From: a virus
Lineage: Duplodnaviria > Heunggongvirae > Uroviricota > Caudoviricetes
Strand: one strand, 5' to 3'
DNA: 46,604 nt
Virus record (IMG/VR): IMGVR_UViG_2565956727_000002
Positions 28,134 through 45,289 of this stretch are shown in pieces. Every line of letters begins with the position of its first letter. Position 1 is the first letter of the stretch. Position numbers and translations under genes: made by a program. The notes below the pieces were generated by a model. The model did no database searches, had not been told where the DNA came from, and was given only the letters and a program-made list of their open reading frames with translations.

Positions 28134-28404
28134 GATGTTACCGTAGTATGTGAGTATCCATCGAATAGATACCAAGCAAAAAAGCTCCCGAAGGAGCCTT
28201 CATTTTCACTTTTTTAAATCCAACGACAGACGGCTGGCATTTAAGTATTGTGAAATATTATCAAATGTAATCATCATTGATTTACAAAAGATACATTTTG
28301 CCCCGAAAGGATTCATGTCAGAAACATCAAAAGATGATGTTCTATACTGGGAACCATGACAACACGGGCATCTAAAGTGAATATGGTTTGTAATATTGTC
28401 TACC

Positions 28405-28617
28405 TCAAAGCGCCACTACATGAACAGCGGCAGGACCTTTAGGTCCGTTCTCAATACCAAATTCAACTTCCTGATTCTCAGTTAATGTTTTGAAATCGTT
28501 GCTCTGAATTGCTGAGAAATGGACAAACACATCTTTGCTGCCATCTTTCGGCGTGATGAAACCAAAACCTTTTTCAGGGTTAAACCATTTCACTAAACCA
28601 GTCATTTTGTTAGACAT
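28405..28617 (-). CDS. cspI: cold shock protein CspI
   Basis: 70 aa with CspA-family RNP motifs (KGFGFI, VFVHF); sequence matches CspI as I recall it. Confidence 0.95.
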
Positions 28618-28979
28618 AATTATTACCTTTTGAAGAAATTAGCCCTTGGGCAGAATGGTCCGAAAAAAAATATCAGAGAGAAAAACCAACAAGGAAATCT
28701 CAAGAGGTACAAATAATAAAATTATAACAATGACTGCTTCAGATAAATTTGTAACAAACCAGAACACCATTAACGCATGATTAACCACCCATAGCAAGGA
28801 TTACTTTTGTAAAGAAAAACACAGCAATGAAAGAATAGCTTTATTTATTAATAAAACGTGTCATTCTGATTAAGACCTTTTATCTTACCCTTAAGATTTC
28901 AGGAATTTTGGCTCATGGAAGAGTCCTTTTTATTTAAATTTTACATTCCGCGATGTAAATGTTCCGATTTAATATTACC

Positions 28980-30925: not shown

Positions 30926-31288
30926 TTGATTTTATTAGTAACAAGTATTTTTTATATTTTAATAATATATTTAAAGCAGATAATAAAAAACCCGCCTGAG
31001 CGGGTTTGAGATTGTGGTGCTTTTTGTGGGAGTCATCCACTTACGCACTTTGTTTTGCCATGCCAGCAGTTAGCTTCTGCTGTAAAACTATTCATGCAGC
31101 AAACCTGCACTTCACCACAATGGTTAGCATACTTTTCCTGATTAAGATTTTGCCAAATATGCTAGCCATTGTTTCATGTATTGGACCTCCTTACTTTTTA
31201 TTAAAGAGATCCAATATTCACTACTCTGTCCGTATCTCTACTCAGGCATCAGCCTTCTTCGTTATCGTATACAGACGAGCGATGAATT

Positions 31289-31504
31289 TTAATCAGTAAT
31301 GATGACATTTGCTGCTGCAGGACCTTTAGCACCACTCTCTATAGAGAAGGTAACCTTTTGACCTTCAAATAAGGTTCGATAATTATCATTCTGAATCGCA
31401 GAAAAATGCACAAACACATCTTTACTACCATCAACAGGAGAAATAAAGCCGAAACCTTTATCAGCGTTAAACCATTTTACTAAACCAGTCATTTTATTTG
31501 ACAT
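31289..31504 (-). CDS. cspB: cold shock protein CspB
   Basis: 71 aa with CspA-family motifs ([17 protein letters not shown]). Confidence 0.9.
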
Positions 31505-31804
31505 TCTACATTCCTTAACTTGAGCCTTTCGGCATAAATGGTTTGCATAACAGAAACGACTTCGTACTTAATTGGAGAGACTCAAAGAAGGAATAAGTGA
31601 ATAACACCTGAAATGAGAACTGCTTTAGTAAACTACTTCGTATATCGTCTGTTCTTCAAACCGACGCAATCATTAACGCATAGTTGAACATATGAAGCAA
31701 TGTTTATTTTAGACATCCAGCCATCTTCAACCCCATCAAAAAACTATAGCTTTCTTCAGGAACGTGTGTATAGTGCGCCAAGTTATCAGTATTAAGGAAT
31801 TTTT

Positions 31805-35068: not shown

Positions 35069-35224
35069 TTACTCCTCAGGTTCGTAAGCTGTGAAGACAG
35101 CGACCTCCGTCTGGCCGGTTCGGATTCGTACCTCGCAGAGGTCTTTCCTCGTTACCAGTGCCGTCACTATGACGGTTAAACAGATGACGATCAGGGCGAT
35201 TAACATCGCCTTTTGCTGCTTCAT
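35069..35224 (-). CDS. hokD: Hok-family membrane toxin (HokD/RelF)
   Basis: 51 aa MKQQKAMLIALIVICLTVIVTALVTRKDLCEVRIRTGQTEVAVFTAYEPEE, a canonical Hok toxin. Confidence 0.9.
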   Translation of the reverse strand: MKQQKAMLIALIVICLTVIVTALVTRKDLCEVRIRTGQTEVAVFTAYEPEE

Positions 35225-35281
35225 AGCCTGCTTCTCCTTGCCTTCCGGCACGTAAGAGGCTAACCTACATGTGTCTAGCAT
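35069..35281 (-). CDS. mokD: Mok-like in-frame N-terminally extended reading frame for hok translation control
   Basis: 70-aa ORF including the hok frame with a 19-aa N-terminal extension, as for mokC/hokC. Confidence 0.5.
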   Translation of the reverse strand: MLDTCRLASYVPEGKEKQAMKQQKAMLIALIVICLTVIVTALVTRKDLCEVRIRTGQTEVAVFTAYEPEE

Positions 35282-35420
35282 GAAATTGGCCTCAGATTAA
35301 TGTTAAGCGTCTTGCAGGACGCGTAATGTTAACTGGGGCTTTTCTCTATCTGCCTTTGGTGTTCATGCCCGAGGCAGATAGCCTCAAGCACCCGCAGCCA
35401 TTCTACTTAACTACCTTTAC
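35282..35420. promoter_or_regulatory. hok mRNA leader / putative Sok-like antisense RNA region
   Basis: Non-coding region upstream of mok/hok with an extended inverted repeat (tatctgcc...ggcagata); by analogy with hok/sok loci. Confidence 0.35.
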
Positions 35421-40804: not shown

Positions 40805-40960
40805 ATGGATACTATCGATCTTGGCAACAACGAATCTCTGGTGTACGGCGTGTTTCCAAACCAGGACGGCACGTTCACCGCAATGACGTATACCAAAAGC
40901 AAAACGTTTAAAACCGAAAATGGTGCCCGTCGCTGGCTGGAAAGAAACTCAGGTGAGTGA
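40805..40960 (+). CDS. ydfA: small protein YdfA
   Basis: 51-aa product MDTIDLGNNESLVYGVFPNQDGTFTAM... from internal ATG 40805. Confidence 0.75.
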   Translation: MDTIDLGNNESLVYGVFPNQDGTFTAMTYTKSKTFKTENGARRWLERNSGE

Positions 40961-40961
40961 T

Positions 40962-41537
40962 ATGGATTTCGACACAATCATGGAAAAGGCTTACGAAGAA
41001 TACTTCGAAGGCCTTGCCGAAGGCGAAGAAGCTCTCAGCTTCAGTGAGTTTAAACAGGCACTCAGAATAAGAATGTGCTCTCACAATGACGCGGAGCACA
41101 AATATGAGAAGCAAAATCAGACCGCAGAAAATTTTGTTCTGGAACCCGGAGAAACGCTTTTCAAAATTCCCGTTACGTGCCCCATTTGCGGTTTTACATC
41201 AGAAGAACTTGACGACTCCTGTAACAATCAGGAAACAACCAAGTATGTCGAAGATGATACCGAGTGCGCACGAAGAACGATTATATCCACGAGTCCAAAC
41301 TCCAGGACCAATAAATCTCACTTTGAGAGGGTGATTAATCCACTCCCCCAAACCAATAAAAAAGATGCCGGAGGACAAAAAACCCAATGGAACAACGGGA
41401 TATCTGTCAAAAAAAGACGTTCCATTAAAGACAAACAACGCAGCGCCAACAACTGTAAGCGCTTTATACCAGTAATCAATTTTCATGTTCTTAAGCGGAT
41501 TTATTGGTGGTTGCGACATTGCTTAATGAATCCTTAA
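40962..41537 (+). CDS. YdfB/YdfC-like protein, here a single uninterrupted reading frame (about 191 aa)
   Basis: ATG 40962 with AGGTGAG upstream, overlapping the ydfA stop; contains CPICG zinc-ribbon-like motif; continuous frame where I recall two short ORFs in K-12. Confidence 0.6.
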   Translation: MDFDTIMEKAYEEYFEGLAEGEEALSFSEFKQALRIRMCSHNDAEHKYEKQNQTAENFVLEPGETLFKIPVTCPICGFTSEELDDSCNNQETTKYVEDDTECARRTIISTSPNSRTNKSHFERVINPLPQTNKKDAGGQKTQWNNGISVKKRRSIKDKQRSANNCKRFIPVINFHVLKRIYWWLRHCLMNP

Positions 41538-41796: not shown

Positions 41797-41855
41797 TTTC
41801 TGGTGAAGTTTGGCGGTATCAGTTTTACTCCGTGACTGCTCTGCCGCCGTTTTTA
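41797..41855 (+). ncRNA. dicF: DicF small regulatory RNA
   Basis: Sequence TTTCTGGTGAAGTTTGGCGGTATCAGTTTTACTCCGTGACTGCTCTGCCGCC followed by a T-run, matching DicF as I recall it; terminator stem ggcgg/ccgcc. Confidence 0.8.
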
Positions 41856-42023: not shown

Positions 42024-42212
42024 ATGAAAACGTTATTACCAAACGTTAATACGTCTGAAGGTTGTTTTGAAATTGGTGTCACTATCAGTAACCCTGTATT
42101 TACTGAAGATGCCATTAACAAGAGAAAACAAGAACGGGAGCTATTAAATAAAATATGCATTGTTTCAATGCTGGCTCGTTTACGTCTGATGCCAAAAGGA
42201 TGTGCACAATGA
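42024..42212 (+). CDS. dicB: cell-division inhibitor DicB
   Basis: 62-aa product MKTLLPNVNTSEGCFEIGVTISNPVF... from internal ATG 42024 with GAGGA upstream. Confidence 0.9.
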   Translation: MKTLLPNVNTSEGCFEIGVTISNPVFTEDAINKRKQERELLNKICIVSMLARLRLMPKGCAQ

Positions 42213-42400
42213 ATTCAGCATTTGCGCTTGTTCTGACAGTTTTTCTTGTTTCCGGAGTGCCAGTTGATATTGCAGTCAGTGTTCACAGGACAATGCAGGA
42301 GTGTATGACTGCAGCAACCGAACAGAAAATTCCCGGTAACTGTTACCCGGTCGATAAAGTTATTCACCAGGATAATATCGAAATCCCGGCAGGTCTTTAA
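42209..42400 (+). CDS. ydfD: small membrane protein YdfD (lysis-associated)
   Basis: 63 aa MNSAFALVLTVFLVSGVPVD... with N-terminal TM helix; ATG overlaps the dicB stop (ATGA). Confidence 0.8.
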   Translation: MNSAFALVLTVFLVSGVPVDIAVSVHRTMQECMTAATEQKIPGNCYPVDKVIHQDNIEIPAGL

Positions 42401-42493
42401 AACAGTTCCGTAATAAATATCCGGTTTCATTCTTATATGCCAGCAATGGCAGGGATTTGTTCATCCTTAAATCTGTCATGAGGTTAAAACAAA

Positions 42494-44965
42494 ATGAGTA
42501 AAGTCTTTATTTGCGCCGCTATTCCTGACGAACTGGCAACAAGGGAAGAAGGCGCTGTGGCTGTAGCCACAGCCATTGAAGCTGGCGACGAACGCCGTGC
42601 TCGAGCAAAATTTCACTGGCAATTCCTGGAACATTATCCGGCTGCTCAGGACTGCGCTTATAAATTTATTGTCTGCGAGGATAAACCTGGCATACCCCGC
42701 CCTGCCCTCGATTCATGGGATGCTGAATATATGCAGGAAAACCGCTGGGATGAGGAGTCTGCTTCTTTTGTCCCGGTTGAGACTGAATCCGATCCGATGA
42801 ACGTCACTTTTGACAAGCTGGCCCCTGAAGTACAGAACGCTGTCATGGTTAAGTTCGACACATGTGAAAACATCACCGTTGATATGGTTATTAGCGCACA
42901 GGAATTGTTGCAGGAAGACATGGCAACATTCGACGGACATATCGTTGAAGCGTTGATGAAAATGCCAGAAGTTAACGCCATGTATCCGGAGCTTAAGTTG
43001 CACGCCATTGGGTGGGTTAAGCATAAATGTATTCCTGGTGCTAAATGGCCCGAAATTCAGGCAGAGATGCGCATCTGGAAAAAACGTCGCGAAGGTGAAC
43101 GCAAGGAAACCGGAAAATACACGTCTGTTGTTGATCTCGCCCGCGCCAGAGCCAATCAACAGTACACTGAAAATTCAACAGGAAAAATCAGCCCGGTCAT
43201 TGCTGCCATTCATCGCGAATACAAGCAGACATGGAAAACACTGGATGACGAACTGGCCTACGCTCTCTGGCCTGGTGATGTGGATGCCGGAAACATTGAC
43301 GGCAGCATCCATCGCTGGGCAAAAAAAGAAGTTATCGACAACGACCGCGAAGACTGGAAGCGTATCTCGGCATCAATGCGCAAACAGCCTGATGCCCTTC
43401 GCTACGACCGCCAAACTATTTTTGGCCTTGTCCGTGAGCGTCCGATCGACATTCACAAAGATCCCGTAGCACTGAACAAATATATCTGCGAATACCTGAC
43501 GACAAAGGGCGTGTTTGAGAATGAAGAAACAGACCTGGGCACTGTTGATGTTCTCCAGTCATCAGAAACACAAACTGATGCAGTGGAAACTGAGGTATCT
43601 GATATCCCAAAAAATGAAACCGCGCCGGAAGCTGAACCATCTGTAGAGCGTGAGGGGCCGTTCTATTTCCTCTTCGCAGATAAGGACGGAGAAAAATACG
43701 GTCGCGCAAACAAACTTTCTGGTCTGGATAAGGCACTGGCTGCTGGCGCCACTGAAATCACAAAAGAAGAATATTTTGCCCGAAAAAATGGCACATACAC
43801 GGGCTTACCGCAAAATGTAGATACCGCTGAAGATTCAGAACAACCAGAGCCGATAAAAGTTACCGCTGACGAAGTAAACAAAATTATGCAGGCAGCCAAT
43901 ATCAGCCAGCCTGACGCCGATAAGTTGCTTGCTGCATCACGTGGTGAATTTGTTGAAGGGATTAGTGACCCGAATGATCCGAAATGGGTTAAGGAGATCC
44001 AGACCCGCGATTCTGTGAACCAGAACCAGCATGAATCGGAACGGAACTACCAAAAAGCGGAACAAAACAGTCCAAATGCGTTACAAAACGAGCCAGAAAC
44101 GAAACAGCCTGAACCAGTGGCGCAACAGGAAGTGGAAAAAGTCTGCACCGCCTGCGGTCAGACCGGCGGCGGCAACTGCCCTGATTGTGGCGCGGTGATG
44201 GGCGACGCAACATACCAAGAAACATTCGATGAAGAGTATCAGGTTGAAGTTCAGGAAGATGATCCGGAGGAAATGGAAGGCGCTGAACATCCACACAAGG
44301 AGAACACTGGCGGCAATCAGCATCACAATAGCGATAATGAAACTGGCGAGACGGCAGATCACCCAATTAAGGTGAACGGTCATCACGAAATCACATCCAC
44401 CAGCAGGACGTGTGACCATCTAATGATCGACCTTGAAACCATGGGAAAAAATCCTGATGCCCCGATCATCTCAATAGGTGCAATATTTTTCGATCCGCAA
44501 ACCGGAGATATGGGACCGGAATTTAGTAAGACTATCGATCTGGAAACTGCTGGCGGAGTCATTGATCGGGACACCATTAAATGGTGGCTTAAGCAATCAC
44601 GCGAAGCGCAATCTGCCATTATGACCGATGAAATCCCGTTAGATGATGCACTGTTACAATTGCGGGAATTTATCGACGAAAACTCCGGTGAATTTTTTGT
44701 TCAGGTTTGGGGAAATGGAGCCAACTTCGACAACACGATTTTGCGCCGTTCATACGAACGGCAGGGGATCCCCTGCCCGTGGCGTTACTGCAACGATCGC
44801 GATGTACGCACAATCGTTGAGCTGGGGAAAGCCATAGACTTCGATGCCAGAACGGCTATTCCATTCGAAGGTGAGCGCCATAATGCACTTGATGACGCCC
44901 GTTACCAGGCAAAATACGTTTCAGTTATCTGGCAAAAACTGATCCCGAGTCAGGCTGATTCTTAA
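42494..44965 (+). CDS. large prophage exonuclease (YdfE-like) with C-terminal DEDDh 3'-5' exonuclease domain and central zinc ribbon
   Basis: 823 aa; acidic central region, CTACG...CPDCG zinc ribbon, C-terminal DnaQ-like motifs (…MIDLET…, …GNGANFD…, …HNALDDA…). Confidence 0.75.
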   Translation: MSKVFICAAIPDELATREEGAVAVATAIEAGDERRARAKFHWQFLEHYPAAQDCAYKFIVCEDKPGIPRPALDSWDAEYMQENRWDEESASFVPVETESDPMNVTFDKLAPEVQNAVMVKFDTCENITVDMVISAQELLQEDMATFDGHIVEALMKMPEVNAMYPELKLHAIGWVKHKCIPGAKWPEIQAEMRIWKKRREGERKETGKYTSVVDLARARANQQYTENSTGKISPVIAAIHREYKQTWKTLDDELAYALWPGDVDAGNIDGSIHRWAKKEVIDNDREDWKRISASMRKQPDALRYDRQTIFGLVRERPIDIHKDPVALNKYICEYLTTKGVFENEETDLGTVDVLQSSETQTDAVETEVSDIPKNETAPEAEPSVEREGPFYFLFADKDGEKYGRANKLSGLDKALAAGATEITKEEYFARKNGTYTGLPQNVDTAEDSEQPEPIKVTADEVNKIMQAANISQPDADKLLAASRGEFVEGISDPNDPKWVKEIQTRDSVNQNQHESERNYQKAEQNSPNALQNEPETKQPEPVAQQEVEKVCTACGQTGGGNCPDCGAVMGDATYQETFDEEYQVEVQEDDPEEMEGAEHPHKENTGGNQHHNSDNETGETADHPIKVNGHHEITSTSRTCDHLMIDLETMGKNPDAPIISIGAIFFDPQTGDMGPEFSKTIDLETAGGVIDRDTIKWWLKQSREAQSAIMTDEIPLDDALLQLREFIDENSGEFFVQVWGNGANFDNTILRRSYERQGIPCPWRYCNDRDVRTIVELGKAIDFDARTAIPFEGERHNALDDARYQAKYVSVIWQKLIPSQADS

Positions 44966-45037
44966 TGTTCAACTGTCGCCGGTTGTGACTGGTATTCTGC
45001 AACCGGCGCTCGTCTGATGTAAGAGATAAAGAAATCG

Positions 45038-45289
45038 ATGAGCGAAGTAATCATGATTGTCTCTCCCGGCAAATGGGTATCCGAAGAGCAGTTAATTGCG
45101 CTGAAAGGAATAAAAAAAGGTACGTTAAAAAAGGCCCGGGAAAAATCGTTTATGGAAGGAAGGGAATATAAGCATGTCGCTCATGACGGTAGGCCATGGG
45201 ATAACAGTCCATGCTTTTACAACCTGGAAGAAATTGATCGCTGGATTGAGCGCCAGGCATCAGCGAGACCAAGACGTCATCTTACTTGA
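45038..45289 (+). CDS. xis: putative excisionase / small DNA-binding protein
   Basis: 83-aa basic protein immediately upstream of the integrase. Confidence 0.55.
   Translation: MSEVIMIVSPGKWVSEEQLIALKGIKKGTLKKAREKSFMEGREYKHVAHDGRPWDNSPCFYNLEEIDRWIERQASARPRRHLT

Follow-up and report, generated by a model that had tools for sequence, protein, structure and literature searches.

Rv2179c of Mycobacterium tuberculosis, the single-domain bacterial protein after which the Pfam family PF16473 is named, is an RNA-specific enzyme that was published as RNase AS. Two other DEDDh enzymes, DexA of phage T4 (227 aa; PDB 8KEL/8KEN), a DNA exonuclease (PMC12153337), and its E. coli homologue EcD (HAK9828821.1; residue A78 is given in PMC12153337, and the protein is compared here through that description), are standalone proteins. 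RecE of the Rac prophage has a PF06630 N-terminus, a long non-nuclease part (PMC11611040), a PD-(D/E)XK nuclease of 5'-3' polarity and an adjacent partner, RecT. According to PMC12315714, genes for DnaQ-type nucleases lie near int in lambdoid phages, and one class, labelled 'nuclease only, no SAP, no SSB, no anti-RecBCD' and rich in Chi sites, has phage Tritos as its prototype. The protein described here shares features with all of these systems. It is an 823-residue fusion that ends in a DEDDh 3'-5' exonuclease domain with an intact catalytic pentad, as judged from sequence, and is encoded in an operon of the type in which DicA represses the promoter dicBp (PMC10448788).

The intact ydfE gene and its surroundings

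The window, 46,604 nt of Caudoviricetes DNA (IMG/VR record IMGVR_UViG_2565956727_000002), contains at 42494-44965 an intact ydfE gene of the Qin prophage type. The gene is the last early-left gene ahead of xis and int in an intact lambdoid prophage of the Qin/mEp460/Tritos type, with the gene order dicC/dicA, ydfA, DicF RNA, dicB, ydfD, ydfE-type gene, xis, int. This order agrees with the placement in the dicB (early-left) operon that had been proposed in a sequence-only reading of this DNA.

41798-41849, + strand: DicF sRNA (Rfam RF00039, 70.2 bits), upstream in the same early-left operon
42024-42212, + strand: dicB, upstream of the ydfE-type gene
42209-42400, + strand: ydfD, immediately upstream of the ydfE-type gene
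42438-42451, + strand: putative weak hairpin of terminator type between ydfD and ydfE
42494-44965, + strand: full-length ydfE-type gene (823 aa, ATG start, TAA stop)
45038-45289, + strand: xis, immediately downstream of the ydfE-type gene
45309/45324-46604, + strand: int, downstream of xis

The ATG is preceded by GAGG 10 nt to its 5' side. The product is identical to RefSeq WP_023277790.1, labelled 'exonuclease', and matches PHROG 2082 from end to end. Its residues 1-256 are the same as those of ydfE of E. coli K-12 MG1655 (b1577, a pseudogene) at 256 of 256 positions, and beyond codon 256 the K-12 gene runs into IS2E, so the gene was correctly taken for a full-length version of the truncated K-12 ydfE. 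The K-12 gene occupies the same locus, 3' of dicB-ydfD, 5' of int and adjoining rspB, but YdfE of K-12 lacks the rest of the N-terminal module, the linker and the nuclease domain, all of which are present in the 823-residue protein. Homologues at 88-94% identity carry the Pfam domains PF27430 (YdfE_N) and PF27432 (YdfE_C); these families are assigned here via the homologues, the protein itself being placed by its identity with b1577.

The gene is widespread and already annotated, with Pfam and PHROG families. Of 5,426 complete E. coli genomes, ~4,800 have it, often more than once, and near-identical copies are present in the isolated phages HannyBb, PhiR42_1, Tritos and mEp460_ev081; the Tritos gene shows 99.1% DNA identity and has the same context. 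Database records call it 'exonuclease', '3'-5' exoribonuclease' or 'exodeoxyribonuclease VIII', of which the last is wrong. A literature search for 'ydfE' as a whole word returned incidental mentions only, and the main text of PMC12315714, which treats the Tritos class, is silent on domain architecture, on the cassette shared with RecE and on the N-terminal module.

Expression from dicBp is plausible. In K-12, a transcript past ydfD was not detected (PMC10448788), and the hairpin at 42438-42451, a candidate terminator, is consistent with this lack of ydfD-ydfE read-through; both observations count against the lytic-phase role proposed below. So does the fact that lysogens can dispense with the gene, K-12 having a truncated copy and PPompW_EH1846 a frameshifted one. 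In this functional mEp460/Tritos-type lambdoid phage, the early-left operon holds no other nuclease-type gene, and no gene for an annealing protein (recT or another SSAP) was found between it and int or among the upstream early-left genes. The latter include a 205-aa ORF that has no Pfam match and falls into a PHROG of unknown function. Chi sites number six on one strand of the window and two on the other, where fewer than one per strand is expected, a modest enrichment.

Architecture of the 823-residue protein

In the predicted structure, the protein comprises three parts, namely a folded N-terminal module, an acidic linker with conserved islands and a zinc knuckle, and a C-terminal DexA-like DEDDh domain.

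42494-43528, + strand: N-terminal module, aa 1-345, with a confidently predicted fold
43226-43513, + strand: helical subdomain, aa 245-340, shared more widely than any other module
43529-44413, + strand: acidic predicted-disordered linker, aa 346-640 (~295 aa), pLDDT <50 over most of its length
43649-43798, + strand: conserved island 'GPFY...GRANKL...EEYxARK', aa 386-435, dN/dS 0.05
43901-44374, + strand: cassette common to Rac RecE, aa ~470-627 (RecE ~450-592), ~85% DNA identity
44144-44188, + strand: CxxC-x7-CxxC zinc knuckle, aa 551-565, CTACGQTGGGNCPDC, Cys pairs 551/554 and 562/565
44414-44953, + strand: DEDDh (DnaQ-like) 3'-5' exonuclease domain, aa 641-820, Pfam PF16473

Within the N-terminal module, an alpha/beta subdomain (~1-100), a helical part (~110-205), a disordered loop (~224-235) and a second helical part (245-340) are predicted; residues 1-345 matched no known fold in a structure search. 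The 245-340 subdomain is also seen in relatives with a RecE-type N-terminus and, weakly, in Rac RecE itself (278-340). The GPFY island accompanies the YdfE-type N-module with either type of C-terminal nuclease, and the cassette shared with RecE contains the DADKLLAASRGEF island (471-510) in addition to the zinc knuckle. Every folded or island segment is under purifying selection (dN/dS 0.05-0.16), while the linker segments (dN/dS 0.64-0.90) are evolving under relaxed constraint, and the natural variant P0121 is missing the whole linker.

All four cysteines of the knuckle are kept in the relatives P0123, P0124, P0151 and P0203 and in Rac RecE despite changed flanks. A zinc ribbon had been noted ahead of the nuclease, and the CxxC...CxxC motif is indeed there; it does not form a packed domain directly before the nuclease but lies ~75 residues upstream, in the predicted-disordered linker, with an AF2 pLDDT of ~64. 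The ribbon was rejected as a family-defining element, as many relatives with a DEDDh fusion lack the motif.

The protein is large and, as had been observed, strongly acidic, with a net charge of -66. Such a polypeptide, produced from an early phage gene, could in principle be a DNA mimic that sequesters host restriction or defence nucleases. Searches of Pfam, PHROG and PADLOC and a fold search with the N-module turned up nothing resembling ArdA, Ocr, KlcA or another mimic. The predicted-disordered, weakly constrained linker segment 371-640, which P0121 does without, contributes -31 to the net charge, about half of it, and an enzymatic role is favoured by the catalytic site, which is intact and conserved. 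The earlier suggestion of an anti-restriction function is thus not upheld, and we consider this explanation very improbable.

The DEDDh domain and its probable substrate

The C-terminal domain scores 225.4 bits with PF16473 (Rv2179c-like), whose cutoff is 27, at E=5e-67 and over profile positions 2-177 of 177, and contains DLET at 646, NFD at 744 and HNALDD at 796. Among 89 diverse relatives, the Exo I residues D646 and E648 (D-x-E) are conserved in 99% and 96%, the Exo II aspartate D746 in 98%, and the Exo III residues H796 and D801 (H-x4-D) in 100% and 98%; they align with D7/E9, D119 and H186/D191 of DexA, respectively. The DnaQ-like exonuclease recognized from the DLET...HNALDD motifs is therefore corroborated by the profile match and by a DexA-like predicted fold, and the possibility that its catalytic residues are unconserved, which had been named as grounds for dismissing it, is not borne out. 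The domain has a dN/dS of 0.16 and an AF2 pLDDT of ~96. An internal start at M644 yielding a standalone DEDDh protein was considered and rejected, there being no Shine-Dalgarno sequence at a useful distance, and the NrnC-like diDNase family (PMC11706625) is a separate DEDD subfamily of no relevance here.

In a sequence/profile search of the PDB with this domain, DexA was the only solved structure detected. It belongs to the same DEDDh subfamily and aligns at five of the five catalytic residues, although identity is only ~22-28%. The predicted fold is RNase H-like, and Foldseek likewise placed DexA (8KEN/8KEL) on top, with E~1e-9 and a target TM of 0.65-0.72, followed by RNase T, Orn, REXO2 and ERI1. 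Rv2179c is in the same Pfam family by HMM, but no direct sequence or profile similarity to it was seen in the PDB search, even at E<=10. With DexA as the nearest characterised relative, and with part of the scaffold common to a DNA exonuclease, DNA is, by analogy, the more likely substrate of the DEDDh domain. PF16473 is named after an exoribonuclease, which speaks against the DNA reading, and sequence alone cannot decide between DNA and RNA.

An RNA 3'-5' exonuclease resembling Rv2179c/RNase AS, which would remove poly(A) or trim operon transcripts such as the DicF precursor, is suggested by the Pfam family name and the NCBI product names ('3'-5' exoribonuclease'), by the presence of RNase T, Orn and ERI1 among the structural neighbours and by the proximity of the gene to an sRNA that needs 3' processing. 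Against it, the PDB search that detected DexA missed Rv2179c, RNase T and Orn are active on DNA too, and the scaffold is shared with RecE, a DNA exonuclease. In K-12, whose ydfE is truncated, the enzymes credited with DicF processing are RNase E and RNase III (PMC10448788). We regard an RNase function as unlikely.

The similarity to DexA and EcD also raises the question of prophage defence, in which an HREX-like enzyme would degrade the modified DNA of superinfecting T-even phages. EcD is reported to digest 5hmC T4 DNA, and its leaky expression is already enough to protect E. coli (PMC12153337); the domain belongs to the DexA/EcD family, with DexA as its closest structure, and the same operon encodes the lysogen-protective DicB (PMC6832061). 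The tryptophan implicated in recognition is missing, however. DexA W152, which is needed for activity on T4 DNA, corresponds to C766 in the gapless local alignment PWRYCNDRDVRT vs PCKFWNQRDIRT, which is anchored by the conserved P762 and R772/T773; 48% of the relatives have W in this column. With Cys at the W152 position, the reported mode of 5hmC recognition is not expected. DexA D90, a tetramer-forming residue, aligns with D718 and is thus kept here but lost in EcD (PMC12153337), and DexA S87 is replaced by P715. The D169 column of DexA holds A780 in the MAFFT alignment, where a 4-residue length difference also allows D782 or D784. In addition, the early operon that contains the gene is under repressor control (PMC10448788), the product is a large fusion where DexA and EcD stand alone, and the only PADLOC match is to a generic Cas-associated DEDDh profile (E=1.7e-5). 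A defence role consequently appears decidedly unlikely.

Relation to RecE and a possible role in phage recombination

Rac RecE occupies the equivalent operon position, has the same zinc knuckle and, like the ydfE-type product, includes a long non-nuclease part. In BLASTP, residues 262-627 of the query align with RecE 278-592; the overall figure is 39%, the stretch ~470-627 lies well above it, and nothing is aligned past RecE residue 592. The partial NCBIfam RecE match, the common central cassette, the position of recE in Rac and the 'exodeoxyribonuclease VIII' label in PhiR42_1, Tritos and others would all fit a canonical recombination exonuclease equivalent to RecE/ExoVIII. The RecE equivalog NF007259, however, gives only 280 bits where its cutoff asks for 1269, and the match is confined to profile positions 271-600 of 877, a non-catalytic region. 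Pfam detects neither a PD-(D/E)XK nuclease domain nor the PF06630 Exonuc_VIII N-terminal domain in the 823-residue protein, which instead has a YdfE-type N-terminus and a DEDDh domain of the opposite, 3'-5' polarity, with no RecT or other SSAP. The sub-cutoff score and the missing PD-(D/E)XK and RecT refute membership in the RecE/ExoVIII group, leaving this explanation next to no probability.

Among the relatives, N-modules and nuclease domains have been shuffled. This diversity was obtained from a representative search; the general homologue search was saturated by E. coli copies at 88-94% identity and the viral-contig locus search by 99% identical copies. PF06630 was found in P0123, P0126, P0133 and P0137. 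In the handful of loci concerned, relatives with PD-(D/E)XK are followed by RecT and those with DEDDh never have RecT next to them. Phages Tritos and Evi also have the gene in last position before xis/int, as do four further, divergent DEDDh-fusion contexts, and an SSAP accompanies none of them. A recombination function, as put forward in the sequence-only reading, retains the lambdoid recombination-nuclease position and the RecE-shared cassette in its favour; because of its opposite polarity class, the lack of PD-(D/E)XK and the lack of an annealing partner, the protein cannot work like RecE/RecT or lambda Exo/Bet.

The best explanation, to which we give an even chance, is that the intact ydfE product acts on DNA 3' ends as an exonuclease of the lytic phase, within a recombination module made up of a nuclease only. 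Judging from the gene context, it would be made upon loss of the DicA/CI-like repressor, during lytic growth, and would take the place of the RecE-RecT module as a nuclease alone, trimming linear phage DNA at its 3' ends, with host RecBCD/RecA supplying the strand-exchange steps. The N-module and the linker islands would most likely tether or regulate the nuclease via a partner. An anti-RecBCD gene is absent from the phage and its DNA is enriched in Chi, observations that may be cited beside the RecBCD/RecA proposal. As PMC12315714 notes, however, exonucleases of 3'-5' polarity usually inhibit homologous recombination and do not promote it, and one would not by default expect a pro-recombination role.

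A more far-reaching version, which we offer as a long shot, would treat RecE-type scaffolds as interchangeable 'end-processing platforms'. The DEDDh version would then stand for a separate, annealase-independent strategy of phage recombination, in which 3' tails on linear phage DNA are blunted or trimmed by the tethered 3'-5' exonuclease, allowing host RecBCD to load and to act at phage Chi sites and so aiding the formation of the concatemers that packaging requires; the N-module, conserved but structurally novel, and the linker islands would serve for recruitment to a host or phage partner.

The main value of the comparison is a correct annotation for a gene that is common in E. coli genomes and lambdoid phages. 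Tests of the function of the protein are sharpened by three points: a DexA-like DEDDh domain on a partly RecE-shared scaffold, no annealing protein alongside it, and no tryptophan of the kind implicated in 5hmC recognition. If, to speculate, a nuclease-only module cooperates with RecBCD and Chi, this would bear on recombination and concatemer formation in the large class of lambdoid phages without Red/RecET-type systems.

The exonuclease gene and its locus

The window prophage is intact and lambdoid, adjoins rspB, and in its structural region is nearest to phages mEp460, Tritos and HannyBb. The ORF listing of the window contains one 823-aa reading frame, with GAGG 10 nt upstream of the ATG, that encodes a strongly acidic protein (net charge -66); the copy in E. 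coli LH13-b is 100% identical. Upstream lie dicC/dicA, ydfA, the DicF RNA (Rfam), dicB and ydfD, and downstream xis and int, in agreement with the early-left dicB operon location proposed in the sequence-only reading. That reading also took the N-terminus for that of YdfE, truncated in K-12; indeed, identity to K-12 MG1655 ydfE (b1577), an annotated pseudogene whose reading runs into IS2E, is 100% over residues 1-256.

Features of the window
42494-44965 (+), ydfE-type exonuclease gene
42438-42451 (+), weak hairpin resembling a terminator, with a 5-bp stem followed by GGGATTTGTT, in the 93-nt ydfD-ydfE spacer, from a consensus scan
44977-45008 (+), perfect 9-bp inverted repeat (CGCCGGTTG / CAACCGGCG) with a 14-nt loop and no T-run, between the exonuclease gene (12 nt past its stop) and xis
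40920-41537 (+), 205-aa ORF with a YdfB-like start and a CxxC, full-length match to phrog_35040 (unknown function)
41199-41519 (-), 106-aa ORF antisense to the 205-aa ORF, hydrophobic by eye, no match in PHROG or Pfam
28378-28763, 31273-31665 and 35219-35393 (-), two cspA-type thermoregulator 5'UTRs (cold-shock gene morons) and the sok antitoxin RNA (hok/sok), from Rfam
21727, 29582, 34149, 34206, 35653 and 44397 (-), Chi (GCTGGTGG)
33564 and 33616 (+), Chi (GCTGGTGG)

In K-12 (PMC10448788), dicBp is repressed by DicA, and ydfE, with an uncharacterised product, is counted in the dicBF operon; no transcript beyond ydfABC-dicFB-ydfD was detected there. Upstream of the ydfE-type gene, the consensus scan found no promoter-like site. 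Since no K-12 transcript was seen past ydfD, no promoter was found and a hairpin intervenes, we can only infer that the gene is expressed after repressor loss, possibly with antitermination. The repeat beyond its stop (RNA fold -18.9 kcal/mol, z = -2.3) may act in processing or attenuation. The ydfB-ydfC segment departs from K-12; in LH13-b, the identical strain, PGAP calls ydfB a pseudogene and annotates nothing else in this segment. A 2-bp indel separates the window from LH13-b somewhere between dicA and dicB.

The gene is already known: it is extremely common and annotated, Pfam and PHROG each have families for it, and its nuclease class has a recent literature. Megablast matched it in 4,800 of 5,426 complete E. 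coli genomes (coverage at least 80% in 3,537 of the 4,800), at a median of 2 and a maximum of 10 places per genome. Thirty deposited phage genomes carry it, including the isolated HannyBb, PhiR42_1, Tritos and mEp460_ev081, and a single 90%-identity protein cluster has 23,183 members. Product names are 'exonuclease', '3'-5' exonuclease' and '3'-5' exoribonuclease (domain-containing protein)', as well as 'exodeoxyribonuclease VIII' in several phage records. Close homologues bear precomputed Pfam PF27430 (YdfE_N) and PF27432 (YdfE_C), so the N-module is an already curated family. In phage PPompW_EH1846 (L006 3001-5468) the annotation gives the copy as frameshifted.

Domain anatomy and the nuclease active site

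A full-length AlphaFold2 model, with a 150-sequence alignment as input, has three parts. In the N-module an alpha/beta and a helical subdomain are followed, after a short loop, by another helical subdomain (245-340). A separately built model of aa 1-370 agrees with this fold.

Model confidence (AlphaFold2 pLDDT) and dN/dS from a codon comparison with the 87%-identical phage Evi copy, one pair only
N-module, aa 1-345: confident fold, pLDDT mostly >90
Linker, aa 346-640: predicted disordered, pLDDT <50 except weak islands and the zinc knuckle (~64)
DEDDh domain, aa 641-820: very confident, pLDDT ~96
aa 1-200: dN/dS 0.06
aa 245-340: dN/dS 0.09
'GPFY...GRANKL...EEYxARK' island, aa 386-435: dN/dS 0.05
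DADKLL island, aa 471-510: dN/dS 0.10
Zinc-knuckle segment, aa 546-580: dN/dS 0.25
DEDDh domain, aa 641-823: dN/dS 0.16
Linker segments 341-385, 436-470 and 581-640: dN/dS 0.64-0.90

These values indicate that selection acts on the folded parts and the short islands and is far weaker on the acidic spacers. An anti-restriction function, as suggested earlier, or DNA mimicry has the acidity of the protein in its favour and nothing further; about half of that acidity lies in the weakly constrained linker. We consider such a role most improbable.

The exonuclease motifs seen in the sequence-only reading are DLET (aa 646) and HNALDD (aa 796), with NFD at aa 744; the CxxC-x7-CxxC ribbon occupies aa 551-565. 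PF16473 (Rv2179c-like 3'-5' exonuclease domain) matches residues 642-813 over its entire model (E=5e-67), and PHROG 2082 'exonuclease' matches end to end. In an alignment of 89 domain sequences from 50%-identity cluster representatives plus one T4-type DexA, conservation is 96-100% at D646, E648, D746, H796 and D801, the aligned counterparts of DexA D7, E9, D119, H186 and D191; the reading, which turned on these residues, therefore stands. The gene is real, intact, selectively maintained and was correctly described. Its product has a modular scaffold with a conserved DEDDh active site that is intact, and its predicted identity as a catalytically competent exonuclease is close to certain. As in the DEDDh family generally, it would hydrolyse the 3'-terminal nucleotide by a two-metal-ion mechanism. 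The domain is widespread, occurring in 1,583 phage records, T4-like dexA included.

Sequence searches of solved structures with the single protein, with the isolated domain and with a family profile found DexA (8KEL/8KEN) and no other; Rv2179c gave no match there even at E<=10. Foldseek with the DEDDh domain placed DexA at the top (E~1e-9); next came RNase T, oligoribonuclease/REXO2, ERI1 and Cap18. DexA is a 3'-5' DNA exonuclease (PMC12153337), so the Pfam-derived 'exoribonuclease' label is not a substrate assignment. From its nearest relatives and its scaffold, the protein would probably act on DNA rather than RNA, and an RNase role appears unlikely. EcD, a standalone E. coli DexA homologue, sets a precedent for HREX, a reported defence activity on 5hmC T4 DNA (PMC12153337). 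However, C766 aligns robustly with DexA W152, a residue needed for activity on T4 DNA, the D90 equivalent missing in EcD is kept (D718), and the gene lies within a repressed early operon; by these comparisons, HREX-type defence against T-even phages is quite unlikely. The counterpart of DexA D169 is ambiguous in the alignment.

The RecE-like cassette and module exchange

By BLASTP against Rac RecE only residues 262-627 align (with RecE 278-592), weakly at first and very strongly from ~470, the zinc knuckle being almost identical; at DNA level, identity to recE is ~85% over nt 1420-1867 of the gene. In contrast, the first 260 residues and the nuclease domain are not in common. The protein scores 280 bits with the NCBIfam RecE equivalog (cutoff 1269), and RecE/ExoVIII membership was refuted on four defining features. 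Rac RecE (L004 2642-5239) has the same CxxC-x7-CxxC knuckle at residues 517-531 (CNACGQTGGDNCPDC), upstream of its nuclease domain; in a 2023 recombineering review (PMC11611040), the N-terminal region of RecE is given as 'of unknown function' and zinc is nowhere mentioned.

A search for representative relatives gave 11,627 matches at E<=1e-3. Pfam and PHROG scans followed, and phmmer was used to build a matrix for each segment in turn. Judging from these sequences, N-terminal and C-terminal modules shuffle freely.

Module combinations among representative relatives
RecE-type N-terminus (PF06630) with DEDDh: P0123, P0126, P0133, P0137
YdfE-type N-terminus with PD-(D/E)XK: P0139
YdfE-type N-terminus with a third C-terminal module (PHROGs 'exonuclease', no Pfam match): P0136, P0152, P0233
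YdfE-type N-terminus with an uncharacterised C-terminus: P0130

In P0121, a 99% identical natural variant of 527 aa, residues 1-340 run almost straight into the DEDDh domain and the whole disordered linker is missing. The helical subdomain 245-340 is the most widely shared piece, and the GPFY island accompanies the YdfE-type N-terminus. The zinc knuckle, limited to relatives with the RecE-like cassette, where its four cysteines are invariant, is missing in many DEDDh-fusion relatives; by sequence it is real, yet no defining element of the family.

Annealing partners, Chi sites and proposed role

In six distinct contexts (window/Tritos, phage Evi, L008, L090, L091/L092 and L093/L094), the DEDDh fusion is encoded by the final gene of the early-left region, ahead of xis/int. 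The genes between repressor and fusion are small, at most 163 aa in the five other contexts, the largest in the window being the 205-aa ORF, which has no Pfam match. No RecT or other annealing protein was matched among these genes in the six contexts. In both PD-(D/E)XK versions examined, a RecT gene is immediately next: recT after Rac recE, and a PF03837 protein (E=2e-36; L009 3530-4354) after P0139. Downstream of a relative that joins a YdfE-type N-terminus to the third, uncharacterised module (phrog_7838, 'exonuclease') comes a Sipho_Gp157 (PF05565) gene (L095 7223-7717). The type of C-terminal module seems to predict the downstream partner gene, and in this small sample, where the pattern is clean, the ydfE-type gene does not encode one member of an exonuclease/annealase pair.

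According to a 2025 lambdoid phage survey (PMC12315714), DnaQ-like 3'-5' nucleases occur in or near Rec modules, often beside int; Tritos is its prototype of a Chi-rich class with 'nuclease only, no SAP, no SSB, no anti-RecBCD', and it remarks that 3'-5' exonucleases usually inhibit recombination. This view is compatible with an annealase-free locus. Of the eight Chi sites in the window, six share a strand and two lie on the opposite one (<1 per strand expected from base composition); one of the eight is within the exonuclease gene. This fits the Chi-rich, anti-RecBCD-less class of that survey.

To a known family, this analysis adds a precise domain map and the cassette shared with RecE; it corrects two labels, ExoVIII and 'exoribonuclease', finds the tryptophan of 5hmC recognition absent and links nuclease type to RecT presence. 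The gene occupies the lambdoid recombination-nuclease position, without an annealase, in phages without anti-RecBCD genes. We regard the overall explanation as evenly balanced and its specific biological role as tentative: from its context, the protein would process 3' ends of linear phage DNA in the lytic phase, as a nuclease-only alternative to RecE-RecT for which host RecBCD/RecA would supply recombination.
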